Part shown: positions 8,062-63,298 of the stretch, in pieces | How positions within the stretch are numbered: position 1 is the first letter of the stretch | Layout: every line of letters begins with the position of its first letter | Source: a virus | Lineage: Duplodnaviria; Heunggongvirae; Uroviricota; Caudoviricetes | Length of the DNA: 64,000 bases | IMG/VR virus record: IMGVR_UViG_3300032093_014924 | Direction: 5' to 3' (one strand) | Notes under the pieces: generated by a model | Told to the model about the DNA's origin: nothing | Database searches by the model: none | The model's input: the letters and a program-made list of their open reading frames with translations, nothing else | Made by a program: the position numbers and the translations under genes

Positions 8062-8226
8062 TTTTATTTTAATTTACCATTACCCCAATAGTATTCCCAA
8101 TAACCATGTCTGTTACCATTAACATAGTTTCCTTTATAATATAATTGACCATTAGAAAAATAGTGTTCCCAATAACCATGTGGTTGATTATTTTCATTTA
8201 TTGGTGTTATATTTTTTAAATTCATA
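8062..8226 (-). CDS. small MORN-repeat protein (not in the ORF track because it is under 60 aa)
   Basis: Manual translation MNLKNITPINENNQPHGYWEHYFSNGQLYYKGNYVNGNRHGYWEYYWGNGKLK carries YxNGxxxxxGxxxNGxxHGxW MORN repeats, paralogous to the next gene. Confidence 0.4.
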
Positions 8227-8458
8227 TGTAATATGTTTTAGATTTTAATTTACCAAAATATTCAAACCTCTCCCAATAACCATATGGTTTACCATTAAAA
8301 TATTTACCTTTATACATTATTGCACCATTACTATAATAAGATTCCCAATATCCATGAGGTTTATCATTAAAAAAATAACCTTTATACATTATGGCTCCAT
8401 TATCATAATACCATTCCCAATAACCATGTTTTTGGTTATTATCATTATATTGATTCAT
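8222..8458 (-). CDS. MORN-repeat protein
   Basis: Three tandem MORN-like repeats (HGYWEWYYDNGAIMYKGYFFNDKPHGYWESYYSNGAIMYKGKYFNGKPYGYWE). Confidence 0.5.
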   Translation of the reverse strand: MNQYNDNNQKHGYWEWYYDNGAIMYKGYFFNDKPHGYWESYYSNGAIMYKGKYFNGKPYGYWERFEYFGKLKSKTYYI

Positions 8459-10098: not shown

Positions 10099-10120
10099 AT
10101 TACAAATATACTATTAAAAT
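10099..10120 (-). promoter_or_regulatory. conserved upstream motif instance
   Basis: attacaaatatactattaaaat abutting the ATG of 9532-10098. Confidence 0.55.
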
Positions 10121-10164
10121 AATAACCAAACAAAAAAATATAATGTTATTTAACTTATTTAAAT

Positions 10165-10401
10165 TTAATCTTTATCAGTTCCATAGATTTCTTCGTAGTA
10201 TTGTTCACCGTTCTGACAGTTTCGAGCATTAATTGGAAATCCATCGTAGGCGTTAATTATCTGCTCTCGTTCCATTTTCAGTGCCTCATTAAACACTTTT
10301 ACAACATCATGCTTCAGGTGATATCGAAGTTCTCCTGTTTCGGTTTCTTCGAGCAACTTTTCCCAAAGCCAGTCAACTGCGGTTTGTTGTTTACTTTCCA
10401 T
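10165..10401 (-). CDS. hypothetical protein on a G+C-rich island
   Basis: 78-aa ORF whose DNA is visibly more G+C-rich (about 40-45%) than its flanks. Confidence 0.45.
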   Translation of the reverse strand: MESKQQTAVDWLWEKLLEETETGELRYHLKHDVVKVFNEALKMEREQIINAYDGFPINARNCQNGEQYYEEIYGTDKD

Positions 10402-11263
10402 TTCTTTTTTTAAATTGTTTTAAATTTTCAATAGCGTGAAGTTTGTTTTCTGAAATCTGATTAAAAGGAACATTCATAATTTTACTAATATAACAGTATG
10501 TATTAAATGCAAAATCAATCATGTCTTCCTCACTATACATTCTTTCTTGTTGCCACTTAGCACCAAATTTTGCTGATTCCAAATCTGGATATGAATCTCT
10601 AATTGGAAAATGATATCTTTCATTTACATAATTTCTAAATGTTTCTTCAAGTGTTTCTTGTTTAGGTTCTTCTTTTGATGCCCATTCTCTTAATGTTTCA
10701 TTACTAAGTATAATACCACGGCAATCAATATCTGTACAAGTTGGTGTACAATGTTCTCTTATGATTAAATCTAAACCACACTTAGGACAGTTATTAATTA
10801 GTTTAGGTTCTTTGGGAATGATTATTTTGTAATAAAAACCATCTTTTAAATTGTCAGGTGTTTGTATAAATTCTACTTTAATTTCAACCTCCTCACAAGT
10901 AGGATTCTTAACAAACCATTCTGCAAATGTATTATCAATCTCTTGTACACCATCAGCAATAAGGGCTTGGTCTGTTGTTAGGATGATTTTTTTATATTCT
11001 GATTTATATTCAGGAAAATTAATCTTTACATTTTCAAAATCACTTAATATAAAAGGTTTTTGAGCAAATAATCCATAACACCAATCTCCTTCCTTAATTT
11101 CTTCATCAGAAGATGTAATGTAAATGTTTACTTCAGAATCACAAACTGAATTTTTGTACTCACTTGTAATTGTTAAAGCATTTTCAATTAAATGCAACCT
11201 ACTTGGTTTGTCTGTTGGTAATAAATGTAGATTTTTCATATTATTTCTTTTTAAATTGTTCAA
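10391..11263 (-). CDS. paralog family A, member 1 (long form, Cys-rich middle, conserved C-terminal module)
   Basis: C-terminus SAKFGAKWQQERMYSEEDMIDFA...LKQFKKRNGK. N-terminus MKNLHLLPTDKPSRLHL...YITSSDEEIKEGDW is shared with 12088-12837 and 13886-14485. Confidence 0.55.
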   Translation of the reverse strand: MNNLKRNNMKNLHLLPTDKPSRLHLIENALTITSEYKNSVCDSEVNIYITSSDEEIKEGDWCYGLFAQKPFILSDFENVKINFPEYKSEYKKIILTTDQALIADGVQEIDNTFAEWFVKNPTCEEVEIKVEFIQTPDNLKDGFYYKIIIPKEPKLINNCPKCGLDLIIREHCTPTCTDIDCRGIILSNETLREWASKEEPKQETLEETFRNYVNERYHFPIRDSYPDLESAKFGAKWQQERMYSEEDMIDFAFNTYCYISKIMNVPFNQISENKLHAIENLKQFKKRNGK

Positions 11264-11576
11264 ATAATTCTTTTGTAGAAAGGTAAGTATCTTTTCCGTT
11301 TAAATACTTAATCCACCATCCATTTTCTCTTGGAATTTCTTGCTTATCAATCCAATTAATAAAGTCTTCTATTTCACTATAACTTCTTTCTTGTTGCCAT
11401 TTAGCACCTGCAATAAAATCCGTAGAAGTTTCCCATCCCCAATTACCTCCGCTTGGAGCTATGTCATCATACATATCATCACATTGTTTTCTTGCATAAT
11501 TTTCAGCCGCTTCTTCAAGTGTTTCTTGTGTCATCTTATTTCTTTTTAAATTGCCTAAACCAATCTTTAATATCAA
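11241..11576 (-). CDS. paralog family A, member 2 (short form)
   Basis: IAGAKWQQERSYSEIEDFINWI...FEQFKKK. Confidence 0.5.
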   Translation of the reverse strand: MILKIGLGNLKRNKMTQETLEEAAENYARKQCDDMYDDIAPSGGNWGWETSTDFIAGAKWQQERSYSEIEDFINWIDKQEIPRENGWWIKYLNGKDTYLSTKELFEQFKKK

Positions 11577-11832
11577 AACTCCAATCCAAAGGAGATGTAT
11601 TTCTTACAGCCCTTCTATAATCAGATTGATGTTTTAATAGTATTTTAATTACTTCTTCCTCACTATACCTTCTTTCTTGTTGTATTTCAAGATAATCAAT
11701 ATATGTATTCAAATCTTTTGCATATTGATTGTTTGTATAGTCAGCAGGATGATAACTTTCCGTTCTAACACCTTCTAATGGTTTAGAATATTGATTGGGT
11801 CTTTTCATCTTATTTCTTTTTAAATTTTTCAA
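11536..11832 (-). CDS. paralog family A, member 3 (short form)
   Basis: LEIQQERRYSEEEVIKILL...FRQFKKK. Confidence 0.5.
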   Translation of the reverse strand: MKNLKRNKMKRPNQYSKPLEGVRTESYHPADYTNNQYAKDLNTYIDYLEIQQERRYSEEEVIKILLKHQSDYRRAVRNTSPLDWSFDIKDWFRQFKKK

Positions 11833-12085
11833 ATAATTCTTCTGTTGTATAGTATATCAGCTCTAAACCAATCCAATTATCTCTTTCTGTAGTTTGGAAG
11901 TCTTTAATTCTAATCCACTCAGCAAATTCAATTGCCTCACTATACCTTCTTTCTTGTTGCCATTTAGCACCATTTATAAAGGCTGTTCTTTCATAAGAAT
12001 TACTATCATGTTGACCATCCATAATTGATTCCCAATTTTCAGGATATAATCTTTCAGCAGCTTCTTCAAGTGTTTCTTTATTCAT
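11810..12085 (-). CDS. paralog family A, member 4 (short form)
   Basis: INGAKWQQERRYSEAIEFAEWI...FEKFKKK. Confidence 0.5.
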   Translation of the reverse strand: MNKETLEEAAERLYPENWESIMDGQHDSNSYERTAFINGAKWQQERRYSEAIEFAEWIRIKDFQTTERDNWIGLELIYYTTEELFEKFKKK

Positions 12086-12087
12086 AA

Positions 12088-12837
12088 CTATTTCTTTTTA
12101 AATTGTTCAAGCCATTTAGCAATATCTTCCCAACTTCCTTCTTCTACTAATTTAGGCGTATGTAATAATGATGCAATTATTCCCTCCACTTCTTTCTCAC
12201 TATACATTTTTTCTGATTGCCATTTAGCACCTAATTTAATACCACCTGATGTAAACTTAATAGACATTTCATTACCAAAATTTTTAGTTACTTCACTAAT
12301 AAATTCTTCAAGTGTTTCTTGTTTAGGTTCTTCTTTAATAAGATAACCTTCTTCATTAAAAAATAATTCATTACCATTTTCTGAAAATACCTTTGGGTGT
12401 GTTTTAGGTTCTTCACTTGGAATGATTATTTCGTAATCTAATTTCCATTCTCCTTTAGTTTGCCAAGATTCTACTTCAACTTCCTCACAAGTAGGATTCT
12501 TAACAAACCATTCTAAGAACTCATCATCAATAGCTTGTATACCATCTTTGATTAAGTCTTGGTCTGTTGTTAGGATGATTTTTTTGTAATAATCTTTATG
12601 CTCATTTACATTTGTATTTTGACTACCCAGTGTATCATACTTACATATAATATCTTCTCCAAAATGTTTATAATACATCCAATCTCCTTCTTTAATTTCT
12701 TCTGAATTAGTGATGTAGATGTGTTGTTTACCATCTGCTGTAGAATACCCACCTCTGGGAGCAAACCATAAAACTTCTTTACTATCTAGGCATAACCTAC
12801 TTGGTTTGTCCCTTGCTAATACGTGTATGTTTTTCAT
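12088..12837 (-). CDS. paralog family A, member 5 (long form)
   Basis: MKNIHVLARDKPSRL...YITNSEEIKEGDW...YKKIILTTDQDLIKDGIQAIDDEFLEWFVKNPTCEEVEV...LGAKWQSEKMYSEKEV...LEQFKKK. Confidence 0.55.
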   Translation of the reverse strand: MKNIHVLARDKPSRLCLDSKEVLWFAPRGGYSTADGKQHIYITNSEEIKEGDWMYYKHFGEDIICKYDTLGSQNTNVNEHKDYYKKIILTTDQDLIKDGIQAIDDEFLEWFVKNPTCEEVEVESWQTKGEWKLDYEIIIPSEEPKTHPKVFSENGNELFFNEEGYLIKEEPKQETLEEFISEVTKNFGNEMSIKFTSGGIKLGAKWQSEKMYSEKEVEGIIASLLHTPKLVEEGSWEDIAKWLEQFKKK

Positions 12838-13253
12838 ATTAAATTATTTAAAGTGTATTCAATAGCAGCTTCGTAGGCTTCTGTTGGTGAGTTATAATAA
12901 TTTCCTGGTTTACATATACGAGAAGGGTAATTATTTTTTGTTGAATCTTTTTTACCTGTTATATCAATACATTGATAGTAATATTCTTTTTGTATTGTTA
13001 TTGACACACTAATCCATATCCCATGCTTCTCATACAACCACATTACTACTTCTGCAATGGTTGGTGCTGAACAATAAAATTCACCTCCGTTATAATTCCT
13101 ACCCTCATAATAACCATGTCCGTTTTTAACTGGTTCTTGACCTCCTTGATGTAGATATACATCTCCACTTTCAGTATATCCTGAAGTACAGTATTTATCA
13201 AACCCTTTTTCTTTTAGCAACTTCGCTAATTCAAATTTTACTGGTGTTGTCAT
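12834..13253 (-). CDS. hypothetical protein
   Basis: 139-aa ORF with ATGA overlap. Confidence 0.4.
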   Translation of the reverse strand: MTTPVKFELAKLLKEKGFDKYCTSGYTESGDVYLHQGGQEPVKNGHGYYEGRNYNGGEFYCSAPTIAEVVMWLYEKHGIWISVSITIQKEYYYQCIDITGKKDSTKNNYPSRICKPGNYYNSPTEAYEAAIEYTLNNLI

Positions 13254-13453
13254 TTTAATTCAAGATTAAAGTTTAATTTAGTTTCATCATCTTTGAAAGA
13301 TTTCATTTCTGGAATATATTGTTCCATAACACACATTGAAGGTGTTTCTTCGTCTTCAAAATCAAAATGCTGTTCTAAACTCCCTTCATATTGATTCAGC
13401 CATTCAATAGCTTGTTCTTTGGTTTTAAAACCACTTAATGTTATTGTTATCAT
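13250..13453 (-). CDS. hypothetical protein
   Basis: 67-aa ORF with overlapping start and stop. Confidence 0.35.
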   Translation of the reverse strand: MITITLSGFKTKEQAIEWLNQYEGSLEQHFDFEDEETPSMCVMEQYIPEMKSFKDDETKLNFNLELK

Positions 13454-13734
13454 ACTTCAAATTTGTTATAGGTTTCTTCAAATGTGTTTATTATTGATTC
13501 TTTATCAACCGTATTACTTCCACATAATTCACAACTTCCTTTCCAATAATCAGGTTCAGCTTTTTCAGCAGCAGTTTCAAGAGCTTGTTTAATTACATTT
13601 TGAGTGTATTCATTAAGTTGTTCTGGTGTGAAGAAGTAGCCTTGTTGTAAACAGAATAAGTCATCAACTTTTCCTTTCATAGAAAGTGGGAATGTAGATT
13701 TAGGTAAATAAACTGTTTGTTTAGTTGGTTTCAT
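13450..13734 (-). CDS. hypothetical protein
   Basis: 94-aa ORF with elevated G+C. Confidence 0.4.
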   Translation of the reverse strand: MKPTKQTVYLPKSTFPLSMKGKVDDLFCLQQGYFFTPEQLNEYTQNVIKQALETAAEKAEPDYWKGSCELCGSNTVDKESIINTFEETYNKFEV

Positions 13735-13885
13735 TTTTCTAAATTATTAAATAATAAATTCAAAACACTTGTCACAAAGAATCCTATACCCATATACAAA
13801 ATTTGCTCAGGATTAGGTAAAAACATAAAAAATATACCAAATATTAGCATGCAAATATTTACCAAGTTTATCGTTTGTTTTCTGT

Positions 13886-14485
13886 TCATATTAATTTCAA
13901 TTTACCTTGTTCATCGAAAGTACATTCCCATTCTGTTTTTGGAAGCATGGTTTTTAAAAGAGATTCTTGTAACTGTTTAATAAATGATTCTGTAATAGTT
14001 TTGCCTATCATATTCCATACTAAAACTTCTCCAAATTTTTGCATATCCTCAATAGAAAACAATTTATCCTTTACAAGTTCTTGGTGTGCTTTGAAGCCTA
14101 CTTTATAACCTTTCCTTTCTCTTGGACTAAAACTATCTCTCCAACCAGGAGTTGTTTCATCAGGAAATTCTTCTTCAGCCATCTTTTCAACACTATAACC
14201 ATAAATAACTTCTTCTACTTCTGCTACAGTAAGTGGTTTAATATCAAGAAATACTTTAGAAGTATAATTACCATGATTCATATCTTCTAACGGTTGAGTT
14301 GAATGAGTAATTTTGTCCCAATGCTCTTGAATTGATACACGATTATTCTCAGTACAAATAATAGGTTTTTCTTTATATTGCTCACGATATTCTTTATTAT
14401 TATGAATAGCATAATCACCATTCTTTATTTCAGAATCATCTGTAACTATATAGTGCACGTCTTTTAAAATTTCAATCAGTTTCAT
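13886..14485 (-). CDS. hypothetical protein; N-terminus related to family A long forms
   Basis: HYIVTDDSEIKNGDYAIH is similar to the YITSSDEEIKEGDW module. 199 aa. Confidence 0.45.
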   Translation of the reverse strand: MKLIEILKDVHYIVTDDSEIKNGDYAIHNNKEYREQYKEKPIICTENNRVSIQEHWDKITHSTQPLEDMNHGNYTSKVFLDIKPLTVAEVEEVIYGYSVEKMAEEEFPDETTPGWRDSFSPRERKGYKVGFKAHQELVKDKLFSIEDMQKFGEVLVWNMIGKTITESFIKQLQESLLKTMLPKTEWECTFDEQGKLKLI

Positions 14486-14716: not shown

Positions 14717-15553
14717 TTAGGACTTATATTTCCAAATAAATCCTTTGTAATTTTTATATTTACCACTCGCTGCGTGGTTAATATTTGTTCGATTAAATCC
14801 TAATTTATCTTCAACTTCTTTAGAAGAAACCCACTCTTTAATAAAAGTTCCTTCTAAATCATATTGTAAGATATTTTTTGATTTTCTTCTCCTTTTTGTA
14901 ATATTTAAAATATTAGCAATTGCTTTTGTCGAACTATTGTATATTTTAATTATTTCTTTAACTGTTAATCCTTCTTTATAATAAAGATTTATAATATTTT
15001 CTTCGTCTTTTTCAGATAAGTTATATGATTTTATTAAATGTTTATAATCATCATATAAAACTCCTTGACTTGATAAATATTCATTTATCCAATGAGTTCC
15101 AGATTTTATCTTCCATAAAACCTTTAAATCTACTGTACTAAAAATTTTTTGGATTTCAGCAGTAGTTTTTCCAGAAATATATAAATCCCAAATTTTTAAA
15201 CAGTCTTCTAAAGAGGTTTTAGCTACTTGTATTTTAGTTTCTAATGATACTATTCTTGGTAACTCTTCTGTATTAGTTAAGTTGCAATTTAAACCTTTAT
15301 CTTTATTTAAAACATCATAGTAATCTTGCCAGTACCTTTCTCTTTTATTTAGTAAATTAATAGAACATTCTTCAACTATTTCAAATTTGTGGGTTTCCCA
15401 TCCGTATTTTAATACAGAATAATACAATCTTCTTTGTTTAGGTTCATTATATTTTTTGTATGTTTTATATCTTTTTGAGATGTTCTTACTTTGTCCGATA
15501 TAAATTTTACCAGAAGGTGAAGTGATTTTGTATATTCCACAAATTTTATCCAT
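14717..15553 (-). CDS. GIY-YIG homing endonuclease (I-TevI-like, free-standing)
   Basis: N-terminal GIYKITSPSGKIYIGQSKNISKR...YGWETHKFEI...ERYW = GIY-YIG catalytic module, followed by a C-terminal basic DNA-binding region. Canonical SD AAGGAGG 7 nt before the ATG, unlike the other genes. Confidence 0.8.
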   Translation of the reverse strand: MDKICGIYKITSPSGKIYIGQSKNISKRYKTYKKYNEPKQRRLYYSVLKYGWETHKFEIVEECSINLLNKRERYWQDYYDVLNKDKGLNCNLTNTEELPRIVSLETKIQVAKTSLEDCLKIWDLYISGKTTAEIQKIFSTVDLKVLWKIKSGTHWINEYLSSQGVLYDDYKHLIKSYNLSEKDEENIINLYYKEGLTVKEIIKIYNSSTKAIANILNITKRRRKSKNILQYDLEGTFIKEWVSSKEVEDKLGFNRTNINHAASGKYKNYKGFIWKYKS

Positions 15554-16622: not shown

Positions 16623-16839
16623 TTACATCAATAAAATTCAAACATAGTTTTTTGTGGTCTAAAACTTCTTTTAACAACGTTTTTTTATCTTTATTATTAA
16701 AATAGTTATAAACGCTTCCATAACCCATATTTATTGTGAAGCCTAGTCGTTTCCAACCAAACCATCTTTTTTCTTCTATGTAGTTGTTAAGAACTTCGCC
16801 AGTTACTTTACTACATTTTTCTACATATCTAATTTTCAT
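16594..16839 (-). CDS. hypothetical protein (start trimmed to the internal Met to avoid a 125-nt overlap)
   Basis: The track ORF is 16594-16953. The internal MKIRYVEK start gives a near-abutting arrangement with 16829-17362. Confidence 0.3.
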   Translation of the reverse strand: MKIRYVEKCSKVTGEVLNNYIEEKRWFGWKRLGFTINMGYGSVYNYFNNKDKKTLLKEVLDHKKLCLNFIDVIEYPTIKEY

Positions 16840-17362
16840 AATAAACTGTTTTAAGTTGTTGTTCTTTCCAAAGTTGGAGGAGTTTTTTAGATGATTTACA
16901 ATCTTGCATTGTTGAATTAAACTCTTCTCTAAAATAAAACTCAGCAAACTCAATCATATCATCTTCACTAAAAGGATATGTTTGTTGGGATTTGTTGTAG
17001 CCTGTTTTGAAGCCGCTTAAATACTTTTCCCCTTCTGATGTCAATTGAATATCTGTACCATAAAATTCTTGCAAATCATTAATACAAATAATTTCAACCC
17101 CATCCACAACTTGTGGAATATCAATGTTTGAGTTGTTGGTTGCTATTACAAACCGATGATTTTTATTTCCAAATGTTCTAACCGAAGACTTGTATTCTTC
17201 TGTATTATAATTGACTATTTGTTCCATAATGATACCATCTTTAGGTATATGTACTAAATTGGTTTTATGTTCATCACTCACATAATAATCAAAACCATCT
17301 ATTGTAACCTTGTCACAAAAGGTTTCTATACCTGTTGTTTTATCTATTAATCTGTATTTCAT
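16829..17362 (-). CDS. hypothetical protein
   Basis: 177-aa ORF preceded by the CTTAAAACTTGATATATG junction motif. Confidence 0.4.
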   Translation of the reverse strand: MKYRLIDKTTGIETFCDKVTIDGFDYYVSDEHKTNLVHIPKDGIIMEQIVNYNTEEYKSSVRTFGNKNHRFVIATNNSNIDIPQVVDGVEIICINDLQEFYGTDIQLTSEGEKYLSGFKTGYNKSQQTYPFSEDDMIEFAEFYFREEFNSTMQDCKSSKKLLQLWKEQQLKTVYYEN

Positions 17363-36268: not shown

Positions 36269-37183
36269 TTATTTAATTGTTTTTTTAAAGTTATCTGTTT
36301 CTAACGATGTTATTTTATTACCAAGTTCTTGACTAGGTTTAAGATTAAATTTATCCATTACTTCTTGTGAATTAACAGACAATTCAAAATCTATAAAAGC
36401 ATCAACTAACTTTTTATCTAAATTATTTATTTGACCGAATTTTTTTATTTGTTCATCATTCAATGTTATATTTTTTTGCATCTTTTTTAATGCTACGGCT
36501 GTATCAATACTTATATTTAAAAAACTAAGTAAAAATTGAATGTTTCTTATCTCATCAATAGTGTATCTTAATTCATTTAATTTGTTACCAATGTTTTTAG
36601 GGTTATTTAATTTTAATAAAGTTGATATTGTTATGATATAATCATCTGTTAAGTTTTTGAAATTCTTATTAATATTAAGTTTAGGAAAAATCCAATCAAA
36701 TAAATTATATCTATCTATTAAAGATAGAAAGAAAGAAACATTTTTAGCTGATTTAATTCCTTTAATAAATTCATCTTTTACTCTCTCAGCAGATATACCT
36801 TCTAAACTAGCATCTTTTTGTAATGCTTCATCTGTTTGTTGGTCTATATCACTATCTAATCTGGCTGAGAATCTTAGAACTCTTAAAATCCTAAGTCTAT
36901 CTTCATTGAATCTATCTTCTGGTTTACCAACGGTTCTAATCACACCATTTTTTATATCTTCAATACCACCAACAAGGTCAACAATTTCTTTATTTTTAAT
37001 ATCGTAAAATAAAGCATTTATTGTTATATCTCTTCTTAGCACATCTTGATATATATCTGTGAATTCGACTGAATCTGGTCTTCTTTTATCAGCTAAAGTT
37101 TTTTCATAATCTTCAAATTCTTTTTTAAAGAATTCTTTAGCTATTTGTTCCCAATTTTCCATTTTAATTATTTTAATTTCCAT
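36269..37183 (-). CDS. CCA-adding tRNA nucleotidyltransferase, C-terminal portion (neck/body), separate ORF
   Basis: ADKRRPDSVEFTDIYQDVLRRDITINALFYD = the conserved RRD(F/I)TINA motif that follows the head domain. Begins with its own ATG overlapping the end of the GIY-YIG gene. Confidence 0.7.
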   Translation of the reverse strand: MEIKIIKMENWEQIAKEFFKKEFEDYEKTLADKRRPDSVEFTDIYQDVLRRDITINALFYDIKNKEIVDLVGGIEDIKNGVIRTVGKPEDRFNEDRLRILRVLRFSARLDSDIDQQTDEALQKDASLEGISAERVKDEFIKGIKSAKNVSFFLSLIDRYNLFDWIFPKLNINKNFKNLTDDYIITISTLLKLNNPKNIGNKLNELRYTIDEIRNIQFLLSFLNISIDTAVALKKMQKNITLNDEQIKKFGQINNLDKKLVDAFIDFELSVNSQEVMDKFNLKPSQELGNKITSLETDNFKKTIK

Positions 37184-37875
37184 TTATAACCACCACACTT
37201 ATTTCTATTACCATTTATTACCGACCAAATATTGCCTTGACTCAACCCTAATTCTTTTGCTGCTGCTGTTGCACTAACCCATTCTTTAATTAATTCACTA
37301 TCTTTAGATAATTGTAATACTGGTGTTGCGTTCCAAGACAAAGTACCTTTTTTGGTTTCTGATATTTGTTTTTTAGTCTCTTCGCTGTGTTTATTACCAG
37401 TATTTCTACCAGGTTTACCAATTAATGATTGACTTATTTTTTCTCTTGTTATATTACTAACCTCCCTATTTTTATTGTTTTGACTGATTTTATTCCTATA
37501 CTCTAACGACCTTATGTGACCAGAAACACCATCGCCTCCATTGGTAAGGTTGGTTAATGGACCATTTTTTAAATCATTCCTACCAATAACTAATATTAAT
37601 TTTTTTTCTAACTCGAAAGCATCAACTTCAAATATATTTTCACTAATTTTTAAAATTATTGGTTTTAAACCAATATTTATTATTTTATTAATTTTTCTAA
37701 TTTTATATGTGTTATTATCACACTTCATCCTATTAGGGTTTAAGTGTTCTAAGCATCTTTTGTAACATCCCTTTCCAACATAAAATGGTTCATATTCAAA
37801 TTTATAATCACCATATGTAAATTCACCTTTTTTTCTTGGGTCTAGGTAAACATAGACATAATATTTTGATTCCAT
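37168..37875 (-). CDS. GIY-YIG homing endonuclease inserted within the CCA-enzyme gene
   Basis: YVYVYLDPRKKGEF...FYVGKGCYKRCLEHLN = GIY-YIG module, with C-terminal NUMOD-like basic repeats. Located between the two halves of the CCA enzyme. Confidence 0.75.
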   Translation of the reverse strand: MESKYYVYVYLDPRKKGEFTYGDYKFEYEPFYVGKGCYKRCLEHLNPNRMKCDNNTYKIRKINKIINIGLKPIILKISENIFEVDAFELEKKLILVIGRNDLKNGPLTNLTNGGDGVSGHIRSLEYRNKISQNNKNREVSNITREKISQSLIGKPGRNTGNKHSEETKKQISETKKGTLSWNATPVLQLSKDSELIKEWVSATAAAKELGLSQGNIWSVINGNRNKCGGYKWKLK

Positions 37876-37919
37876 GACATTCTTTTTATTATAAATATCA
37901 TGGATTAATCTAAAAGTCG

Positions 37920-39485
37920 CTATTTCATTAATTTAGTTAAAAATTTTTCGTAACTACCATTATTTAAACGTTTTAAATAATCTTTAAACCCTTCTAAATC
38001 ATAACCTTTATATTGGTCTATTCTGAATGTGGCTATTTCATATTCATCACTATCTGTTATAACATTAATGACACCAAATGCTTTTCCTGTTGCTATTGTT
38101 TTATAACCGTTTTCTTGTAATATGTTTTCAATATCATCTGGTTTAGCATTTGTTGCTAAATCATAATCTTTTGGTTCTTTATTTAGTAAAACATCCCTTA
38201 CTGAACCACCAACAAGATATAAATCATAACCATTCTTAACAAAAATATCTTTAATATCTATTATGTCCTTTGGTAAGTTAATATCATATTTAATTCTTAT
38301 TTCAGATGAAGTATTTAATTTATTTTCGTTTTCGGTAAAAAATTGTTTATATTCATCATCTTCTTTCACGTTATTTAATAAACGTTCTTCTTCATCATTT
38401 AATGGTCTATTTATGTTTTTTAAAATCAATTCTTGATGTTTTTCATCATACTTCCAAAAATCTTCTAAAATATCTTCTAATATAGTTACATCATTTACTT
38501 TAATGTTTTCATCATAAATTAATTTAATATAACCATCATCAATCATTTTTTTAACCATTTTATAATGTGGTAATTTTTCTAATAAACCATTCTTAAATTT
38601 AATTGGTAATGAATTATAATAAACTTTTTTTAAGTTTTCATCTAACTCATCTAATTGATAAGGTTCAAAATAATATTCAAAATTTTTTATATAAATTATT
38701 TTTTCATTATTTTTTAATTTATTAAAAAAATCAATACTTAATTTATCACCAGCTAAAGCATCTGAACGCATATTTGGGAAATTAGTTATCACATCACGTT
38801 TTATTTTACAAAATAGTTCTGGGTTTTTAACTTCTACTGGATTAGACGATAGTTTAGATAAATCATATATAACAGACCCGTGTAATGTATTATCATACCC
38901 ATCTATACCGCTAACATTAACACCATTAAAACCATTGTACTCCATTATTCTTGTTGACATGGATGCTAAATTGGTTTTGTTCTTCATGTCATTTGCGGCT
39001 TCTTTAACCATATTTATATATTCACGATATTTTGGAATATTTAAACCTAGGTATTGTGCATTATTTATTATTTTTAAATAAATAATTTTGAATTTGTTAT
39101 CCATTTCAAATTTGCTATCATAAACTCTAACAACTAAATAAAAACTTTCATTTATTAGTTTTAATGTTTTAAATAACATTTCAGCATGGTCTGGTGATTT
39201 AACCCTAAATAAATTTTTATAAATATCAAAATCAACACGATAAATATTATCTTTTATTTTAGTTAATTCTTTTTTTGAGTTATCGGAATCATCAAAATTT
39301 TCACAACTATAAGTAGAAAAATAAAGACCAGAACCAAAATGCCCAGTTCCACGACCTTGCATACGAAATAAATTATCTGAACCATATGGTCTTATATTTT
39401 CTACATTTTCTATATCACCTTTATGGTAATTAAATTCCGTTTCGTTTAATAAGTTTCTTAATTTGAATTTAATATAGTTTTTCAT
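37920..39485 (-). CDS. Unknown about 400-aa N-terminal domain fused to the CCA-adding enzyme head domain (N-terminal half of the split nucleotidyltransferase)
   Basis: C-terminal 90 aa YDLYLVGGSVRDVLLNKEPKDYDLATNAKPDD...GKAFGVINV...EYEIATFRIDQY = class-II polymerase-beta head domain (GGxVRD, DxD, ATFR). The ORF stops immediately after. Confidence 0.7.
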   Translation of the reverse strand: MKNYIKFKLRNLLNETEFNYHKGDIENVENIRPYGSDNLFRMQGRGTGHFGSGLYFSTYSCENFDDSDNSKKELTKIKDNIYRVDFDIYKNLFRVKSPDHAEMLFKTLKLINESFYLVVRVYDSKFEMDNKFKIIYLKIINNAQYLGLNIPKYREYINMVKEAANDMKNKTNLASMSTRIMEYNGFNGVNVSGIDGYDNTLHGSVIYDLSKLSSNPVEVKNPELFCKIKRDVITNFPNMRSDALAGDKLSIDFFNKLKNNEKIIYIKNFEYYFEPYQLDELDENLKKVYYNSLPIKFKNGLLEKLPHYKMVKKMIDDGYIKLIYDENIKVNDVTILEDILEDFWKYDEKHQELILKNINRPLNDEEERLLNNVKEDDEYKQFFTENENKLNTSSEIRIKYDINLPKDIIDIKDIFVKNGYDLYLVGGSVRDVLLNKEPKDYDLATNAKPDDIENILQENGYKTIATGKAFGVINVITDSDEYEIATFRIDQYKGYDLEGFKDYLKRLNNGSYEKFLTKLMK

Positions 39486-39519: not shown

Positions 39520-40407
39520 TTAACAACCAAAAAAATCTTTTAAATCTTCATTTTTTTTAAGGTCTCTTATCGCAAACTCTATTATTTTTTTAATTCTTAT
39601 AGTTGTCATATTATACTCTTCTGACATTTGTTTAATTGTTAATTGTTTATAGTCATACAAACCATAATAATGACAAATAATAACTCTACTTATAGGGTTT
39701 AAAGAATATATTACCTTTTTTAATACTTCGTTTGATTCTTTTTCTTCACTATCTACTTCAAAATCATTGTGTTTGAATAAATAATCATTTTCTTCAGTTA
39801 TTAATGATTTAGTAACAACACTAGATTTAATAGCCATCAATACACTATTTTTTATTCTATCTGTACCAATATCAGAATTATTAATAACATATTCGTAATC
39901 AAGTTCATGACCACATTCTTTCTCCATTTTTGCTTTCAAATTATTTATTATTTTAATTTTAGGCATAATGTTTGAAGATATGTTAGCTACATATAAATTT
40001 TCATTTAAAAACAATAAAATTCTTTTTCTTATATGCCAAATAGCATATGAAATAAATTTATTATCTGAATCTGTTTTGAATTGTTCAATAGCTTCACTTA
40101 AGCCAATATTGCCCTCACATATCAATTCTTCAACACCAATATCACCACTGGTTATTTTTTTAGCATATGTTCTTGCAACAGAAACAACAAATAAAAGATT
40201 ATGATTTATTATTTTATCTTTTATTTTTTTTCTGTCTAATTCATCAGTTGTCTCAGACAACTTTATGAATAGTTCTTTTTCTTCTTCTTTGGTTAAAGGT
40301 TTAAGCTTTTCAATTTGACTGTAATAAGCTTTTAAAGATTCTTTAGATAATGTGTTTACAAAAAAATCATCATTACCAAGTCTTTTTTTACCGAAATCTG
40401 TTATCAT
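39520..40407 (-). CDS. Sigma-70 family RNA polymerase sigma factor
   Basis: Region 2 FISYAIWHIRKRI and region 4 LTIKQMSEEYNMTTIRIKKIIEFAIRDLKK. Confidence 0.7.
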   Translation of the reverse strand: MITDFGKKRLGNDDFFVNTLSKESLKAYYSQIEKLKPLTKEEEKELFIKLSETTDELDRKKIKDKIINHNLLFVVSVARTYAKKITSGDIGVEELICEGNIGLSEAIEQFKTDSDNKFISYAIWHIRKRILLFLNENLYVANISSNIMPKIKIINNLKAKMEKECGHELDYEYVINNSDIGTDRIKNSVLMAIKSSVVTKSLITEENDYLFKHNDFEVDSEEKESNEVLKKVIYSLNPISRVIICHYYGLYDYKQLTIKQMSEEYNMTTIRIKKIIEFAIRDLKKNEDLKDFFGC

Positions 40408-47744: not shown

Positions 47745-48737
47745 TTATTCGGTTATATTGTTTTCAATAATTCTTAATTTATTTATCACTTCTTTTTGTT
47801 CTTCTGTTATGCTTTTTGGTATTGATATATCAGCAATAACAAATAAATCACCACGTGAATTGCTTTTAAATTTATTTAATCCTTTTTGTGGTATTCTAAA
47901 CATTTTATTTAATTCAGTATGTTCTGGTATGTTAATTCTTATTTTACCACCATCAATCGTTTCTATATCTATTTTATCACCTAATACTAATTGGTCATAT
48001 CTTAGCTTAACATTTAACTTTAAATCATCACCAGACCTAACATACGTGTCATGTGGTAATTCTTTAATTCTGACGATTAGATTACCATTTATACCATTCC
48101 TAACAGCATTACCTCTACCATTTATATTAAAACCCATATTTTCAAAAACACCTTTTGGTATTTCTAATTCTATTTCGTCTGTTATCTTTTTAGTACCACT
48201 ACCATTACAATCACCACAAACATCCTCATAAACAATACCATCACCTTCACAAACATTACAAGTTGTTGCTTGTTGGAAATAACCAAATGGTGTTTGTGTT
48301 ACATTAATAATAACACCATCACCATTACATTTAGGGCAAGTCTTAGAATTTGTACCACCATGACCATTACATGTTTTACAACTATCCAATCTATCAAATC
48401 TATATTTGTTTTTTACACCATTATGTATCTCGTTAAGATTTAATTTAATTTCTAATAAAACATCACTACCAATCTTTTGTGGTTTCGCAAAATCATTAAA
48501 ATCAAATATTGAACGTCTTTTTTCTGTACCAAATCTATCATAATTTGACCTTTTTTCATCATCAGATAATACACCATAAGCCTCAGATATGTCTTTAAAT
48601 TTTTCTTCAGCTTCTTTGTTGTCAGGATTCTTATCTGGATGATATTGCTTTGCCAACGTTCTATAGGCTTTTTTAATCTCATCCTTTGTTGCATCTTTAG
48701 CAACGTTTAAAATAGCATAATAATCTTTCTTTGACAT
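47745..48737 (-). CDS. dnaJ: DnaJ (Hsp40) chaperone
   Basis: J domain DYYAILNV...[16 protein letters not shown]. Four CxxCxGxG zinc-finger repeats. C-terminal substrate-binding domains. Confidence 0.85.
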
Positions 48738-49918: not shown

Positions 49919-51349
49919 TTACAAACTTATTTTTGAATATCTTTCTGAGTTAACAATATCTAACATTATTTTTTCTGGTGAATAGTCAACATCACCTAAA
50001 ATATTTTTAAGTAATGTTGGTGAAAAACCACTAACTAAACAAACACCACTCTTATCGTATTTTACTGGGAAATTATTATTAGCACCATTTAAATTCCAGT
50101 AAATAACACTAGGCATTTTATAACCAGCATCATTATACATCCTTTCAATCATCTCTTGTGCAGATGTATTATATTTAACACCTTGATTAAACTGCATATC
50201 TGACAATATCACAAGTGTATCTGGCATTTCATCAGCTGAAACTTTGTTTTTAACAGCTGAATTTAATACTAAATTGAAAACACTCTCTAAATTGGTTGAC
50301 ATACCCCAATGAGAATTGCTCATTTGGATAAACCTTTCACTTAAAGTACCTTTAAGTATTTCTAATGTCGGTGATGATGAAAATGTAACAAAACCATCTT
50401 TAAATAACCCTTGATTTCTTTCAGAAATGTATATACCTAAAGATATAGCAACATCTAAACATGTTATTGTTTTACTACTACCAGCAGGACATGACATAGA
50501 ACCAGAAACATCTACGATAGGTAATAGTCTTTTTTTATTACCTTCCATATAATTAGGTAATGAATTCCATTGAACATCCGCACCATCTTTATTACCATAA
50601 CGCATATTTTTAATAATATCGTATGGATATACTGCACCAGCTTTAATAGTGGTTTTACCTGTCTTAACATCATTAATAAAAGATAAAAATCTTTCTTTAT
50701 CATGTCTAATAAATACTGACATGTAATCACTCATGGCTTTTGATGGTATTTTATTATATTCAATAGAACCCCATTTATTAGAACACATAAGTTGTTCAAC
50801 AGTATTTGACAAGTCACTTAGTAATATTCTATATTCTTTAGGTGACAATCCTAAACTTTTTCTAATTTGATTAGCCCAACGTTTTTTATCTTTATTATTA
50901 ACATTAGGTCTTGGTAACCATTTTGCACATAACCCGTCTTTGGCTTTTAAACCCTCTCTAATGAGCGTTAATACGTTATCCTTTGCCTTGGTATCAATCA
51001 AAGGTAACATGTCATCCCATCGCCCATATTCGCTAATTAAATGGATATTATTAATTAACGTATTTAAATCGTTATCAGCAAGGTAAGTAATAACATCTTT
51101 AAAGATTTGACGTTCACCTGCACCTTCTCTTACATCACGACTCCAAAATAAAATTTTAAGTGCTATTAATTTATTCTCATGGTATGCTTTAATGAAGTTA
51201 TTCATCAACGTTTGCTTATTGTGTTTACCTCTTAACGCACCAATACTGAAAAACAAATCAACACAATGATTGCTTGTCGTACTATTAGCCAACATACCAT
51301 TTGTTGTTAGCGTATCATTACTTGTCATACCGTTAAATAAGTTACTCAT
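49919..51349 (-). CDS. vWA-domain protein, possibly Ro60/TROVE-like
   Basis: C-terminal LPIVDVSGSMS...TFSS...SDM = von Willebrand A MIDAS motif (DxSxS...T...D). The N-terminal about 260-aa helical domain is of uncertain identity. Confidence 0.4.
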   Translation of the reverse strand: MSNLFNGMTSNDTLTTNGMLANSTTSNHCVDLFFSIGALRGKHNKQTLMNNFIKAYHENKLIALKILFWSRDVREGAGERQIFKDVITYLADNDLNTLINNIHLISEYGRWDDMLPLIDTKAKDNVLTLIREGLKAKDGLCAKWLPRPNVNNKDKKRWANQIRKSLGLSPKEYRILLSDLSNTVEQLMCSNKWGSIEYNKIPSKAMSDYMSVFIRHDKERFLSFINDVKTGKTTIKAGAVYPYDIIKNMRYGNKDGADVQWNSLPNYMEGNKKRLLPIVDVSGSMSCPAGSSKTITCLDVAISLGIYISERNQGLFKDGFVTFSSSPTLEILKGTLSERFIQMSNSHWGMSTNLESVFNLVLNSAVKNKVSADEMPDTLVILSDMQFNQGVKYNTSAQEMIERMYNDAGYKMPSVIYWNLNGANNNFPVKYDKSGVCLVSGFSPTLLKNILGDVDYSPEKIMLDIVNSERYSKISL

Positions 51350-56775: not shown

Positions 56776-59217
56776 TTAATTTATTTTATTTTTTTTAGCC
56801 TGTTCAGCTTCTTTATCAATCATATTTATTATGAATTCAGAAACTTTAGATATAATTTCTAAATTATTTTGAATTTTTTCTTTATTAGCTTTCCAAAGTG
56901 CCAAATAAGTTGAATGATGTTTAACTGGTAAATCATAATGTTTTAATACAACATAAGATACACTTTCAGCTTGTAATTCAACCAATTCATTTTTTTCTTT
57001 ACCTTCACCATTATCAATATAATATATTGATGATTTTTTCCAATGCATTAATTCATGTGCTATTTCATGTATCATTGTTGATAATCTAGCAACACCAGTT
57101 ACGCTAGAAGTTAAATTAATATGGTCACCTGCCGAATAACCTTTCTCACCACTTTTAGAATCTGAAGATGTTACTTTAATTCCCATATTATTAGCTATAT
57201 CTTTAACATATTCAAATAATTCATCAGCTGTTTCTGATGGTGTGTTATCTCCCCACCATTGTGGCGTTTCTGGTATTTCACCTTCTGGACTTGTGGCTTC
57301 AGTATCGGCAATATCAAATACAGGTACTGCTCTAAATCCGCTAACATCTTTTTTGAAACCCAATTCATCACCAATTTCTTCATCTGAATCTTTTGTCTTT
57401 GTTATTATTGGTGCTAAAATAAAAATACTTTTAGCACCCTTTTTAACTTGTCTATTTTTTTCTTGCCATTTTTTATATGATGCTACACGTGTTGCATTTG
57501 GATTTTGTATAAAAATTAACATTCTATTATAGAAACTATAATTATGAAATTTAGAAAAAAATGTTAAATATCTTCTTATTTCAGCAGATAAAGCTTTTTC
57601 ATCTGTAGCGTTAGCTAAATCATTAATATACATTTCAATTTTGCTTTTTAATAATGATTTTTTATCAGTAGCCGAATTATCAATCGCTTCTTCTAATTCT
57701 TCTAAACTATCTACAATATATTCAACTTTATTTACTAATGATAGTGTTTTTTTAGCAATATCCATTTTATCTTTACTTATCACCCAATTACTACCATTCC
57801 ATTGAAAACCATTTTGTTTTAAAATATTTTTATTTGTAAATGTCTCTTGACTAGCTGCTTTACCTTCTAAATCAGATATTACAATTAATTCATTTTTTTC
57901 TTTATTAATTTGTAATTTTAAAGCCTCATTTAAAGATGGTGAAATTATATTACCTTTAGTTTTCTTTATCTTAACAACATTATCAATAGCACCAGTACTA
58001 CAACCACTACCAGCTGGTTTATTATTAAGTTTAACACAATCATTGAATTCTACAAATCCGCCATCAGGATATTGTGTTTTTTTCTGTGCTTTTGTTTTTT
58101 TAACTGGTTTAAAAGTGCCATCTCTGTTAATCCCTATTAAAGCATTTGTATCATATGGACCAACACTATCAGTACCTTGTGTTGTTTCATAAACTACTGG
58201 TATTTTACCAGCTATTGTTGGTCTGGTTATCGGTTTGCTAAATAATCCAGTGTATTGTCCAGAAGAACCAGCAGTAGTTATTTCATTTATATCTTCTTCT
58301 TCTTCTTCTTCTTCTTCTTCTTCTTTTTCTCTTTTTTCTAATTCTTTTTTTCTTATATCAGCTATCTTAGCTAATAATTCTTCTCTATTAGTTTTTTTCT
58401 TATTTGAATCTATTCCCCTAGCTTTTTGTAAATCACCTTTAAATTTTTGCCATACATCACTAAACTCAGATTCTATTATAGACATTAAATGTTTATCTTT
58501 TTCATATATTTTTTTTAACTCATTTAATACATTTTCATCAATTAATTTTTCTTGGCCATCATCTTTATATTTCAATTTACAACTACCATCTTCATGTATC
58601 TCCATAATGAAGTCAGCATTCTCATATAAATTTCGTGATTTTTTGGCACTCTTTACTAGTCTATACCAAAGCTGCGGAAATTCTTTTTCGTTTGGTTCTA
58701 ATATAACTTTAAAACCGTTTTCAAGACTTTTAAGCGCATCATCTTTAGTAGAATGGATTCTATTGACAATGTATTTATTTTCGTCAACATCAAATACTAA
58801 AACATTTTGTTCAACCAAAGATTTAACAACACTACCAAAAGTTAAATTCTTTTCTGATAATATACTAGGAAACTCAATATCTGAAACATTAATATGCTGT
58901 GCTTTACCATTTTTCTGTAATTCTTTTATTTCATCAATATATAAATAATTAAGAAAATTTTCAGACAATTTTTTGTAATCAATCTTTGACTCGTTTTCCA
59001 TTATTTGTTTTCCGACTTTATCTATATTTGACACACTAGGATTTGTTCTTTTTGGTTTAATTGTGTTTGAATACGTTATAGGTTCTATCTCACCCTCACT
59101 AAAATATTTTTTAAATAATTTATCAACTCTTGTTTCACCACCTTTTACTTTAGGCGATTTATTCAAATTTTCTTTTATAAGATTATATTGTTCTTTGGTT
59201 ATTTTTATTCTTTTCAT
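56776..59217 (-). CDS. ArdC-like protein (ssDNA-binding N-domain + HExxH metalloprotease) with long N-terminal extension
   Basis: YLTFFSKFHNYSFYNRMLIFIQNPNATRVASYKKWQEKNRQVKKGAKSI matches the ArdC-N/DUF1738 pattern. Downstream MIHEIAHELMHW is a zinc metalloprotease motif. Poly-Glu tract E11 at the middle. Confidence 0.5.
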   Translation of the reverse strand: MKRIKITKEQYNLIKENLNKSPKVKGGETRVDKLFKKYFSEGEIEPITYSNTIKPKRTNPSVSNIDKVGKQIMENESKIDYKKLSENFLNYLYIDEIKELQKNGKAQHINVSDIEFPSILSEKNLTFGSVVKSLVEQNVLVFDVDENKYIVNRIHSTKDDALKSLENGFKVILEPNEKEFPQLWYRLVKSAKKSRNLYENADFIMEIHEDGSCKLKYKDDGQEKLIDENVLNELKKIYEKDKHLMSIIESEFSDVWQKFKGDLQKARGIDSNKKKTNREELLAKIADIRKKELEKREKEEEEEEEEEEDINEITTAGSSGQYTGLFSKPITRPTIAGKIPVVYETTQGTDSVGPYDTNALIGINRDGTFKPVKKTKAQKKTQYPDGGFVEFNDCVKLNNKPAGSGCSTGAIDNVVKIKKTKGNIISPSLNEALKLQINKEKNELIVISDLEGKAASQETFTNKNILKQNGFQWNGSNWVISKDKMDIAKKTLSLVNKVEYIVDSLEELEEAIDNSATDKKSLLKSKIEMYINDLANATDEKALSAEIRRYLTFFSKFHNYSFYNRMLIFIQNPNATRVASYKKWQEKNRQVKKGAKSIFILAPIITKTKDSDEEIGDELGFKKDVSGFRAVPVFDIADTEATSPEGEIPETPQWWGDNTPSETADELFEYVKDIANNMGIKVTSSDSKSGEKGYSAGDHINLTSSVTGVARLSTMIHEIAHELMHWKKSSIYYIDNGEGKEKNELVELQAESVSYVVLKHYDLPVKHHSTYLALWKANKEKIQNNLEIISKVSEFIINMIDKEAEQAKKNKIN

Positions 59218-62458: not shown

Positions 62459-63298
62459 TTATTCATTAATTAGTGAATATAATTCACCTGAATTGTACCT
62501 TAATTTACGTAACGAACTTTCTTTTATTTGACGTATTCTTTCTTTTGTTAGGTTATATTTTTCACCAATAGCTTCTAATGTCATACTTTCAACATCTGGA
62601 TTTAAACCAAAATAAGATATGATAATGTCTTTTTCTCTTTCATCCAAAATATTAAGAATATTCACTATACCATTTTTTATATCTGAAGTTAATTCATATT
62701 TATCTTCTTCTTTTTCATCAATCCCTATCAAATCAATTAATTCATCATTGTTATCATTAACAAAATCATTTAATGATTTATTTTGATTATACACTGATAA
62801 ACCAAGATGTTCAGCCTCATTTGTTAATTCTTCATTTTCATAGTTAAAATTATCGTATTTTTTTAACTCTTTTAATATTTCTTTATTTAAATTAGATAAT
62901 CTGTTTATAACATTTGTTGGTAATCTTACCGTTCTAGCGTTTTCGTTTAGACTATTGATTATTGATTGTCTTACCCACCAAACAGCATAAGAAATGAATC
63001 TAAAACCCATTGTGTGGTCAAATTTCTTAGCTGCTTTTAATAAACCATAATTACCTTCATTTATTAAATCATTTATCGGTAAGCCTTGATTTTGATATTC
63101 TTTAGCTATTGTTACAACAAATTTTAAATTTGCTTCCACTAAACTTTTAACGGCATCTTCATCACCGTTTTTTATTCTTTCAGAAAGAATTATCTCTTCT
63201 TCTTTTGTTATTACTTTACTTTTTCTTAAATCTTTAAAATATAAATTTAAATTGTTTAAAGAATCTTTTTCATAAAAAATTTGATTATTTTTTTTCAT
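62459..63298 (-). CDS. Sigma-70 family RNA polymerase sigma factor
   Basis: Region 2 FISYAVWWVRQSIINSL, region 3, region 4 MTLEAIGEKYNLTKERIRQIKESSLRKLR. Confidence 0.75.
   Translation of the reverse strand: MKKNNQIFYEKDSLNNLNLYFKDLRKSKVITKEEEIILSERIKNGDEDAVKSLVEANLKFVVTIAKEYQNQGLPINDLINEGNYGLLKAAKKFDHTMGFRFISYAVWWVRQSIINSLNENARTVRLPTNVINRLSNLNKEILKELKKYDNFNYENEELTNEAEHLGLSVYNQNKSLNDFVNDNNDELIDLIGIDEKEEDKYELTSDIKNGIVNILNILDEREKDIIISYFGLNPDVESMTLEAIGEKYNLTKERIRQIKESSLRKLRYNSGELYSLINE

Follow-up and report, generated by a model that had tools for sequence, protein, structure and literature searches.

The DNA analyzed here is a 64,000-nucleotide (nt) stretch, one strand of the Caudoviricetes record IMGVR_UViG_3300032093_014924 in IMG/VR, to which we refer in its full length as the window. 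Its minus strand carries, at 10391-12837, an array of five consecutive genes in the order E-D-C-B-A, separated by gaps of 1-2 nt, whose proteins share a C-terminal module (C-module) assembled from short conserved blocks and variable segments. Even at synonymous sites, the DNA of the blocks is near-identical in unrelated phages. The variable segments that alternate with the blocks re-assort, and the family that the blocks define is phage-restricted, very large and unannotated. The interpretation that we favor, with moderate confidence, is that the array encodes modular binding-type proteins that are diversified by homologous recombination at in-frame linkers, and we likewise consider it probable that the phage is large and virulent and that the array forms a hyperplastic accessory region of its genome. 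An initial annotation, made from the sequence alone, had drawn attention to the five genes; what is added here is that the blocks are conserved as DNA and appear to act as recombination joints.

The initial annotation described the five genes as ending in nearly the same ~40 amino acids (aa). The common module is borne out, with A to E being the only strong matches (E values of 1e-24 to 1e-36) of a hidden Markov model (HMM) of it in the 64-kb window, but the near-identity over ~40 aa is not, as the shared region consists of three short blocks, (EEPK)QETLEEAAE, F.xGAKWQQER.YSE and (W)FEQFKKK, with a variable “head” and a variable “tail” segment between them. Optional parts of the family proteins are a 120-aa beta-rich N-terminal module (N-module) and Cys-rich mini-modules. 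As had been claimed, the two long members, A and E, have the N-module in common (55% identity; HMM E values of 1e-49 and 1e-58), and the Cys-rich middle ascribed to one member corresponds to an insert in gene A, NNCPKCG...DCRG, at aa 149-175 (nt 10715-10795). The five genes are as follows.

10391-11239, minus strand: gene A, long form, 282 aa, with the N-module at aa 1-120 (nt 10880-11239)
11241-11534, minus strand: gene B, short form, 97 aa, C-module alone
11536-11808, minus strand: gene C, short form, 90 aa, isoelectric point (pI) 9.1
11810-12085, minus strand: gene D, short form, 91 aa, C-module alone, beginning MNKETLEEAAE
12088-12837, minus strand: gene E, long form, 249 aa, with the N-module at aa 1-122 (nt 12472-12837)

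With the exception of gene C, the array proteins are acidic, with pI values of 4.5-5.0. In gene A an EEPK linker is located at nt 10661-10672 and the C-module runs to the stop codon, the C-terminal FKKRNGK overlapping the ATG of the following gene. Gene E has EEPK linkers at nt 12403-12414 and 12322-12333, and its C-module occupies aa 173-249 (nt 12088-12321). The motif EEPK/QETLEE (the slash marks the joint) stands before the C-modules of A and E, and genes B and D open at M-x-[QK]ETLEE. Gene C keeps the middle and tail blocks and has a different sequence in place of the ETLEE head block. The array is not an assembly artifact, because the identical gene order recurs on at least 14 contigs from other samples and because the linkers (<60 nt) are shorter than the assembler k-mer given in the record names (k141). 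Contig L004 (107-601) has the identical E-D-C-B-A array with a 164-aa gene upstream of E where the window has a 139-aa gene, a difference that is a further instance of turnover between strains at the array's edge.

As DNA, the head, middle and tail blocks are present in the window in 4, 5 and 4 copies, respectively, all of them inside the array, compared with 0-0.8 copies in shuffled sequences. One copy of each serves as an example.

10524-10570, minus strand: middle linker block (GAKWQQERxYSE; consensus TGGCAACAAGAAAGAnnnTATAGTGAG), gene A copy
10643-10675, minus strand: head linker block ((EEPK)QETLEE; AAAGAAGAACCTAAACAAGAAACACTTGAAGAA), gene A copy
11233-11285, minus strand: tail and junction block (FEQFKKK, stop, ATG; CAATTTAAAAAGAAATAA.ATG), at the B/A junction

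The remaining copies of the middle block, which is found 0 times in the shuffles, are at 11368-11414, 11654-11700, 11931-11977 and 12191-12237. The head block of gene A is 100% identical over 33 nt to gene E at 12304-12336, with shorter copies at 11511-11528 and 12062-12079, and the tail and junction block is found again at 11528-11580, 11802-11854 and 12089-12126. The middle and tail blocks are present in five of the five genes and the head block in four, and their codons fit the family consensus (ACA-CTT, AGT-GAG and AAA-AAG). The junction DNA that had been reported as repeated, TATTTCTTTTTAAATT, is present and corresponds to this tail and junction block. Frameshifting at TTTAAAAAG so as to fuse adjacent genes was considered and rejected, as the -1 frame, read by hand, stops within four codons and, although the next gene is in the +1 frame, no known +1 slippery context is present. 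In Flavobacterium phage elemoA (L001 4026-4211, QLF85207.1), a small gene upstream of a family member ends ...ELDEFKDK, stop, ATG, which recalls the FEQFKKK-stop-ATG junction in an otherwise unrelated protein.

The conservation of the blocks as DNA is evident from a survey of 102 unique C-module open reading frames (ORFs) from 80 viral loci and the window. Within the blocks the choice among synonymous codons is fixed, and it often falls on codons that these loci otherwise seldom use. Specifically, Leu is CTT in 94% of cases in the blocks versus 17% in the background, Thr is ACA in 96% versus 47%, Ser is AGT in 94% versus 28%, Glu is GAG in 90% versus 24%, and the second Lys of KKK is AAG in 91% versus 24%. 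The head and tail blocks were absent from the search pattern and their codon figures are therefore unbiased. The N-module blocks contain Ile as ATC (66-80% versus 11%), Asp as GAC (~90% versus 22%) and Arg as AGG (79% versus 13%), and the EEPKQ linker, which is ~200-fold enriched in family ORFs, has Pro as CCT in 20 of 22 cases. Across 684 inter-locus gene pairs with heads and tails that are <30% identical, the codon identity of the linkers at identical residues is 0.91-0.96, versus the 0.52-0.66 predicted from background usage. Of two control families, the neighboring phrog_12005-like family in the same loci gave codon identities of 0.49-0.77, depending on divergence, and the family of ORF F, a gene located upstream of the array (13 other IMG/VR loci and the window), gave 0.68 at highly conserved columns. 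When IMG/VR DNA was scanned with a degenerate pattern for W-Q-Q-E-R-x-Y-S-E, 66 of the 80 matches listed had the exact TGGCAACAAGAAAGAnnnTATAGTGAG, and none of the matches listed used a TCN serine. According to the consensus profiles, the conserved DNA extends for ~30, 55 and 28 nt per block and ends at coding boundaries, and synonymous sites are more conserved in the linkers (0.94-1.0) than in the co-inherited cassettes (0.76-0.85).

Re-assortment of the segments between the blocks was assessed with 135 unique C-modules cut at the blocks, which gave 79 head and 60 tail clusters. Fifteen heads are paired with more than one tail, 11 tails are paired with more than one head, and seven head-cluster pairs show all four combinations, a four-gamete violation. 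The head type of gene A occurs with the tail types of A, D, B and an ORF 16829-like copy, and in the N-module one var1 type of variable segment combines with many var2 types. The same mosaicism is seen in a near-isogenic contig, L232, which is 5.4 kb in length and present in two samples. L232 3442-5424 corresponds to window 10393-8411 with 99.0% identity over 1,983 nt, but beyond this boundary the array differs, and three of its genes contain parts of window types.

L232 gene 8: 5' part of gene A's type (76%), 3' part of gene B's type (90% DNA identity)
L232 gene 9, short form without N-module: 5' part 62%, 3' part of gene A's type (97%)
L232 gene 3: 5' part unmatched, 3' part of gene D's type (84% DNA identity)

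In gene 8 the tail of gene B is joined to the head type of gene A, and in gene 9 the tail of the long-form gene A is found in a short form whose 5' part matches at the level seen between unrelated cassettes. The switch points in the L232 chimeras fall in the middle block. As the shared cassettes are 84-97% identical while the flank is 99% identical, the cassettes were apparently gained by exchange rather than inherited with the flank.

The extent of the family was determined with both modules. A profile search of a 5.8-billion-protein set returned at least 6,890 (C-module) and at least 7,942 (N-module) 90%-clusters, which contain no Pfam domain, barring one weak case, and an exhaustive HMMER search with the C-module gave 6,192 representatives of 50%-identity clusters, 2,888 of them at E <1e-10, with the match ending at the protein C-terminus in every case. 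A metagenome search for the GAKWQQERxYSE signature, as the initial annotation had advised, yielded at least 149 confirmed IMG/VR loci, the contigs ranging in size from a few kb up to 319 kb. One or two copies is the usual number in a viral locus, and arrays of 5-8 copies are found on contigs of 105-319 kb. In 185,579 bacterial and archaeal species-representative genomes the signature was confirmed on three contigs, all from metagenome-assembled genomes. Within 50,697 GenBank phage records the middle block was found only in the Flavobacterium elemo podoviruses and the N-module block in none. A tblastn search of GenBank phages with E and B gave no match even at E=1, a result that we treat as a filter artifact because blastn and direct translation reveal the elemo phage member. 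Searches of Pfam, PHROG, NCBIfam and PADLOC gave nothing above threshold for A to E, ORF F and neighboring genes, and PDB sequence-profile searches gave chance-level matches only. A known or housekeeping domain was looked for in all of these and in fold searches, and none was found, which agrees with the earlier view of a diversifying multigene family with a conserved module of no recognized domain rather than of housekeeping genes. This mosaic family appears to be undescribed in the libraries searched.

The predicted structures give some insight into how the blocks are arranged. The AlphaFold2 model of gene E aa 1-145 (predicted local distance difference test, pLDDT, 86.9; predicted template modeling score, pTM, 0.82) has nine strands and two short helices. 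Both helices and six of the nine strands of this N-module model fall in conserved blocks, and the variable segments form loops and one hairpin. The C-module is predicted to have four helices. Conserved blocks within and between the modules include MKNIHVLPTDKPSRL, IYITSDEEIKEGDW, KKIILTTDQDLIKDGVQAIDDEFLEWFVKNPSCEEVE, YKIIIPKEEPKQETLEEAAE, GAKWQQERxYSE and FEQFKKK. The short conserved blocks are thus predicted to make up a structural core and to alternate with variable segments on loops, hairpins and helices. A BFVD fold search with the N-module gave just four matches, all to uncharacterized family members. The S24/S26 fold (LexA, lambda CI, UmuD, signal peptidase) was considered for the N-module, with neither a significant fold match nor a fixed Ser-Lys dyad being found, and S24-peptidase activity is rejected because the Ser is not positionally conserved. 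That the N-terminal domain is swappable, as first suggested from the array itself, is seen in the 120 best N-module matches, of which 75 have the C-module and the remainder other C-termini. In relatives the C-module is also present alone, in tandem, or behind Cys-rich modules. On a 117-kb IMG/VR contig (L035 6148-7782, plus strand), three full N-modules follow in succession in one stop-free frame (...YKIIIPKEKPKPLKKIIMKNIH...), which may reflect one protein with three modules or, alternatively, three genes that lack stop codons between them.

We now put forward a mechanism in which the 28-55-nt in-frame blocks would act as homology patches. Phage homologous recombination, both between array paralogs and between co-infecting phages, would swap variable segments and whole modules at these patches, and the outcome of such exchange would be a combinatorial repertoire, while gene conversion by the same exchange would keep the patches homogeneous. 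We suggest, with less assurance, that the proteins act inside the cell as binders, with variable surfaces that keep pace with variable targets, and that they may serve in host takeover, counter-defense or inter-phage competition. We are led to this because they are small, mostly acidic and found on phage contigs only, because they are encoded in a hyperplastic non-structural region, and because arrays occur in the largest phages. An anti-defense role, as had been raised in the initial annotation, is plausible. It should be noted that several points weigh against recombination at the blocks. It is deduced from mosaic patterns and one near-isogenic comparison, and no recombinase was identified in the window. 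The AAG codon in KKK could merely avoid a poly-A run, and the IMG/VR loci come from overlapping sample series, such that their phylogenetic independence is imperfect. In addition, selection on protein and selection on DNA or RNA are inseparable in the blocks because the synonymous sites are frozen too.

A possible but unlikely alternative is selfish spread, in which the blocks are recognition or landing sites of HNH homing endonucleases and the cuts are repaired with a co-infecting genome as template, so that cassettes are copied and their flanks co-converted. This would account for both the DNA conservation and the mosaicism without any benefit of the proteins to the phage. Thirteen unique HNH ORFs were counted in a set of 210 viral loci, and five of them lie in a family gene or no more than 50 nt from one, versus an expectation of 7.4% of bases (binomial p ~2e-3, a post hoc statistic from few cases). 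In three loci an HNH cassette is fused in-frame exactly at the linkers, and the window itself has a free-standing homing endonuclease gene near the array.

L111 894-2045, minus strand: NUMOD4/HNH/AP2 fused in-frame at the YKIIIP and EEPKQE linkers
L168 499-1329, minus strand: in-frame HNH fusion similar to that of L111
L024 2-1015, plus strand: in-frame HNH fusion similar to that of L111
Window 14717-15553, minus strand: GIY-YIG/NUMOD1 homing endonuclease gene, free-standing, 1.9 kb upstream of the array

The order in L111 is N-module, YKIIIPS joined directly to SEIWKDIP..., NUMOD4/HNH/AP2, TKEEPKQETL and C-module, and such in-frame fusions at canonical linkers indicate that the HNH cassette is one of the swappable modules. 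N-modules are also interrupted beside blocks, with an HNH gene dividing the module directly after block 2 in L006 and following the first nine codons of block 1 in L039, and in the elemo phage an HNH gene is two genes away from the family member. On the other hand, ~1% of family genes carry or adjoin an endonuclease, none of 14 GIY-YIG genes is within 50 nt of a family gene, and endonuclease ORFs overall are not significantly enriched within 3 kb (10 of 20 versus 42%). Moreover, a Pfam scan revealed no nuclease domain in A to E, and no cleavage site is known. Like free-standing NUMOD4-HNH_3-AP2 homing endonuclease genes, the array family is horizontally mobile among phages, and rare relatives carry such a cassette in-frame, but A to E and ~99% of family members differ from these genes in having no nuclease domain. 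Spread by HNH endonucleases is compatible with the recombination mechanism that we propose and does not exclude it, and it is plausible that endonuclease-made breaks drive the exchange.

Our recombination mechanism also has a more far-reaching version, a speculation that we think quite unlikely to hold, in which the frozen in-frame linkers constitute a dedicated combinatorial device, similar to exon shuffling but without introns. Many Bacteroidota phages, with 60-kb podoviruses at the lower end and jumbo phages of >300 kb at the upper, would share this device, which would possibly be triggered by HNH cuts at the linkers and by which thousands of binding-protein variants would be kept up as a pan-phage repertoire. 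If true, it would represent recombination-based, repertoire-generating counter-defense in bacterial viruses.

To a further alternative we give little credence, namely, that the blocks are functional nucleic-acid elements, such as regulatory sites, sites for RNA-binding proteins or small RNAs, elements of translational coupling or PeSL-like cassettes, with recombination as a by-product. The synonymous sites of the blocks are indeed more conserved than those of the adjacent co-inherited cassettes, which direct selection on the sequence would lead one to expect, and the A-rich tail block (...AAAAAGAAATAA.ATG) lies at a position from which, we presume, it would affect how translation of the following gene starts in the Bacteroidota manner. 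However, the blocks have no Rfam match, promoter- and terminator-like sites are not above shuffled expectation (sigma-70-type promoters were scanned), the conservation follows the reading frame and stops where coding stops, and a role of this kind would have to be assigned separately to at least seven different blocks, which together span ~300 nt. A nucleic-acid function of this type does not conflict with shuffling. Plain tandem duplication and divergence, in which the genes are old paralogs, the blocks are functionally constrained residues and there is no special recombination, is highly improbable. The tandem layout is the usual product of duplication and the blocks coincide with predicted core secondary structure, but this explanation is contradicted by the codon and chimera data, as rare codons are fixed in members that are otherwise unalignable, unlike in both controls, heads and tails re-assort, and L232, with its 99% flank, carries chimeras of window cassettes.

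In CdiA-CT/CdiI and Rhs loci, a demarcation motif precedes variable C-terminal cassettes, and downstream cassettes can replace the resident one by homologous recombination. The array resembles these loci, by analogy only, in having a motif before variable cassettes and short genes that start at the motif. That it is a polymorphic toxin/immunity-like or effector system, as the initial annotation had it, with a conserved N-terminal carrier, variable C-terminal effectors and orphan cassettes downstream, can hardly be right, since, even though the long genes are followed by short ones that begin exactly at EEPK/QETLEE and L232 supports recombination at that motif, there are no immunity genes between the cassettes (the gaps are 1-2 nt and every neighbor is a family member), Pfam, NCBIfam and PADLOC reveal no toxin, secretion or trafficking domains in A to E, no secretion apparatus accompanies the array, the short forms have their own start codons, and the family is found on virulent-phage-like contigs and is essentially absent from bacterial genomes.

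The array family does not belong to the gp38, PeSL or polymorphic toxin systems, although it has features in common with each. Its proteins are neither adhesins nor toxins, and no relationship in sequence or fold was found. The gp38 adhesins of T-even phages have hypervariable segments between conserved glycine-rich motifs, a modular design that is reported to let specificity determinants be readily exchanged (Trojet et al. 2011, PMC3157838). The array proteins share with that description the short conserved core motifs that separate interchangeable hypervariable segments. In contrast to gp38, a virion tail-fiber adhesin, they are small and encoded in a non-structural region, have no sequence or fold similarity to it, form arrays with free-standing short forms and exchange whole modules in addition to loops; their blocks are not glycine-rich and their neighbors are non-structural. 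In the hyperplastic regions of T4-type phages, PeSL repeats flank small non-essential genes of unknown function, and recombination between the repeats explains insertions, deletions and replacements among near-identical phages (Arbiol et al. 2010, PMC2839356; PMC4122927). The junction repeats of the array and the rearranged, chimeric array of L232 next to a 99% identical flank are similar to this, but PeSL elements are intergenic, consisting of an early promoter and a stem-loop terminator, whereas the array repeats are coding and in-frame, so that recombination yields chimeric proteins instead of just displacing entire genes. Recent fragment shuffling between otherwise unrelated phage proteins has been surveyed and read as an arms race (Smug et al. 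2023, PMC10684548). The array exhibits the same general phenomenon of ongoing fragment shuffling, but that survey highlights receptor-binding proteins, endolysins and replication proteins, while the present family is unannotated, has dedicated nucleotide-conserved linkers and shuffles segments of 15-40 aa, below the scale of a domain. A diversity-generating retroelement target was also considered and rejected, as the linkers are the sole repeats in 10100-12900 and the variable segments differ in length and are unalignable; a Pfam scan of 29 window ORFs revealed no reverse transcriptase.

The family comprises thousands of 50%-identity clusters, is not represented by a model in Pfam, PHROG or NCBIfam, and has a confidently predicted N-module fold without structural neighbor; it is therefore a sizeable piece of phage “dark matter”. 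Its frozen linkers provide a testable handle on how the hyperplastic regions of large phages make new proteins, as recombination at short in-frame homology patches would give chimeras at sub-domain resolution. If a role in counter-defense or host takeover is borne out for the proteins, the array could be regarded as a combinatorial library made by nature. Surveys of this library in metagenomes might use the linkers as primers, and in engineering they might be employed as scaffold joints.

The array sits within a tight same-strand block of small genes in non-structural surroundings. The window is AT-rich (~26% GC), and nearly all of its genes are on the minus strand. Its proteins recur on metagenomic contigs of up to ~290 kb, and we therefore take the window to be a piece of a jumbo-phage genome from its non-structural region. 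The host is probably one of the Bacteroidota, of the Flavobacterium type. Pfam matches elsewhere in the window include two sigma-70-like factors, a T4-type RNA ligase, DnaJ, SPFH, AAA ATPases, a Ro/TROVE-like protein, an ArdC-N-containing protein and homing endonucleases. Four ORFs close to the array bear on the family.

13886-14485, minus strand: ORF F, 199 aa, distant paralog with the N-module beta-hairpin core alone
16829-17362, minus strand: 177-aa ORF with a decayed C-module (GFKTGYNKSQQTYPFSEDDMIEFAEFYF...), HMM E ~0.01, weak
10165-10401, minus strand: 78-aa gene (MESKQQTAVDWL...EREQIINAY...EQYYEEIYG), downstream of A, its start overlapped by A
12834-13253, minus strand: phrog_12005-like gene, 139 aa, ending ...PTEAYEAAIEYTLNNLI

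ORF F had been counted as a further member of the array, but it is not a full member and stands outside the mosaic family. Its match to the N-module is limited to 49 columns, in the IYITSDEEIKEGDW...KKIILTT part (hhalign probability 94%, E 1.4e-7), and with the C-module it has no match (hhalign probability 8%). It belongs to a full-length family of its own, with 417 matches, including one from a Leptolyngbya phage, which evolves normally. The tail of the 177-aa ORF resembles tail type 6. The 78-aa gene had no family matches in database searches, and a weak PADLOC match to JetB/DUF2398 (E 0.002) is probably due to chance. In the metagenomic protein P0161, a homologous segment follows an N-module and a Cys-rich module as part of one fused chain, and the 78-aa gene is, by this homology, a further module of the same pool. 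The phrog_12005-like gene often adjoins family genes in other phages (31 matches in 81 loci), with copies at L006 9416-9856, L039 8347-8793 and L232 1780-2130, and, relative to the array, it is placed differently in L232 than in the window.

Several other genes of the window may be mentioned. Sigma-70-family factors are encoded at 39520-40407 and 62459-63298 (minus strand), a full DnaJ at 47745-48737, a DUF2828/DUF7788 (Ro/TROVE-like) protein at 49919-51349 and an 813-aa protein with an N-terminal ArdC domain at 56776-59217, which together are typical of the accessory content of jumbo phages. At 8064-8458 (minus strand), two adjoining small ORFs consist of MORN-like repeats (YWEWYYDNGAIMYKGYF...HGYWESYYSNG...), as recognized by eye only. 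A nucleotidyltransferase of the CCA-adding or poly(A) polymerase type is apparently present in two pieces at 36269-39485 (minus strand). Specifically, the PolyA_pol head domain is divided such that its first half (profile positions 1-72) is at the C-terminal end of ORF 37920-39485 and its second half (positions 69-126), followed by the RNA-binding domain, is at the start of ORF 36269-37183. The two pieces are separated by a GIY-YIG-like ORF at 37171-37932, and the arrangement looks like a nucleotidyltransferase gene that was split by insertion of a homing endonuclease.

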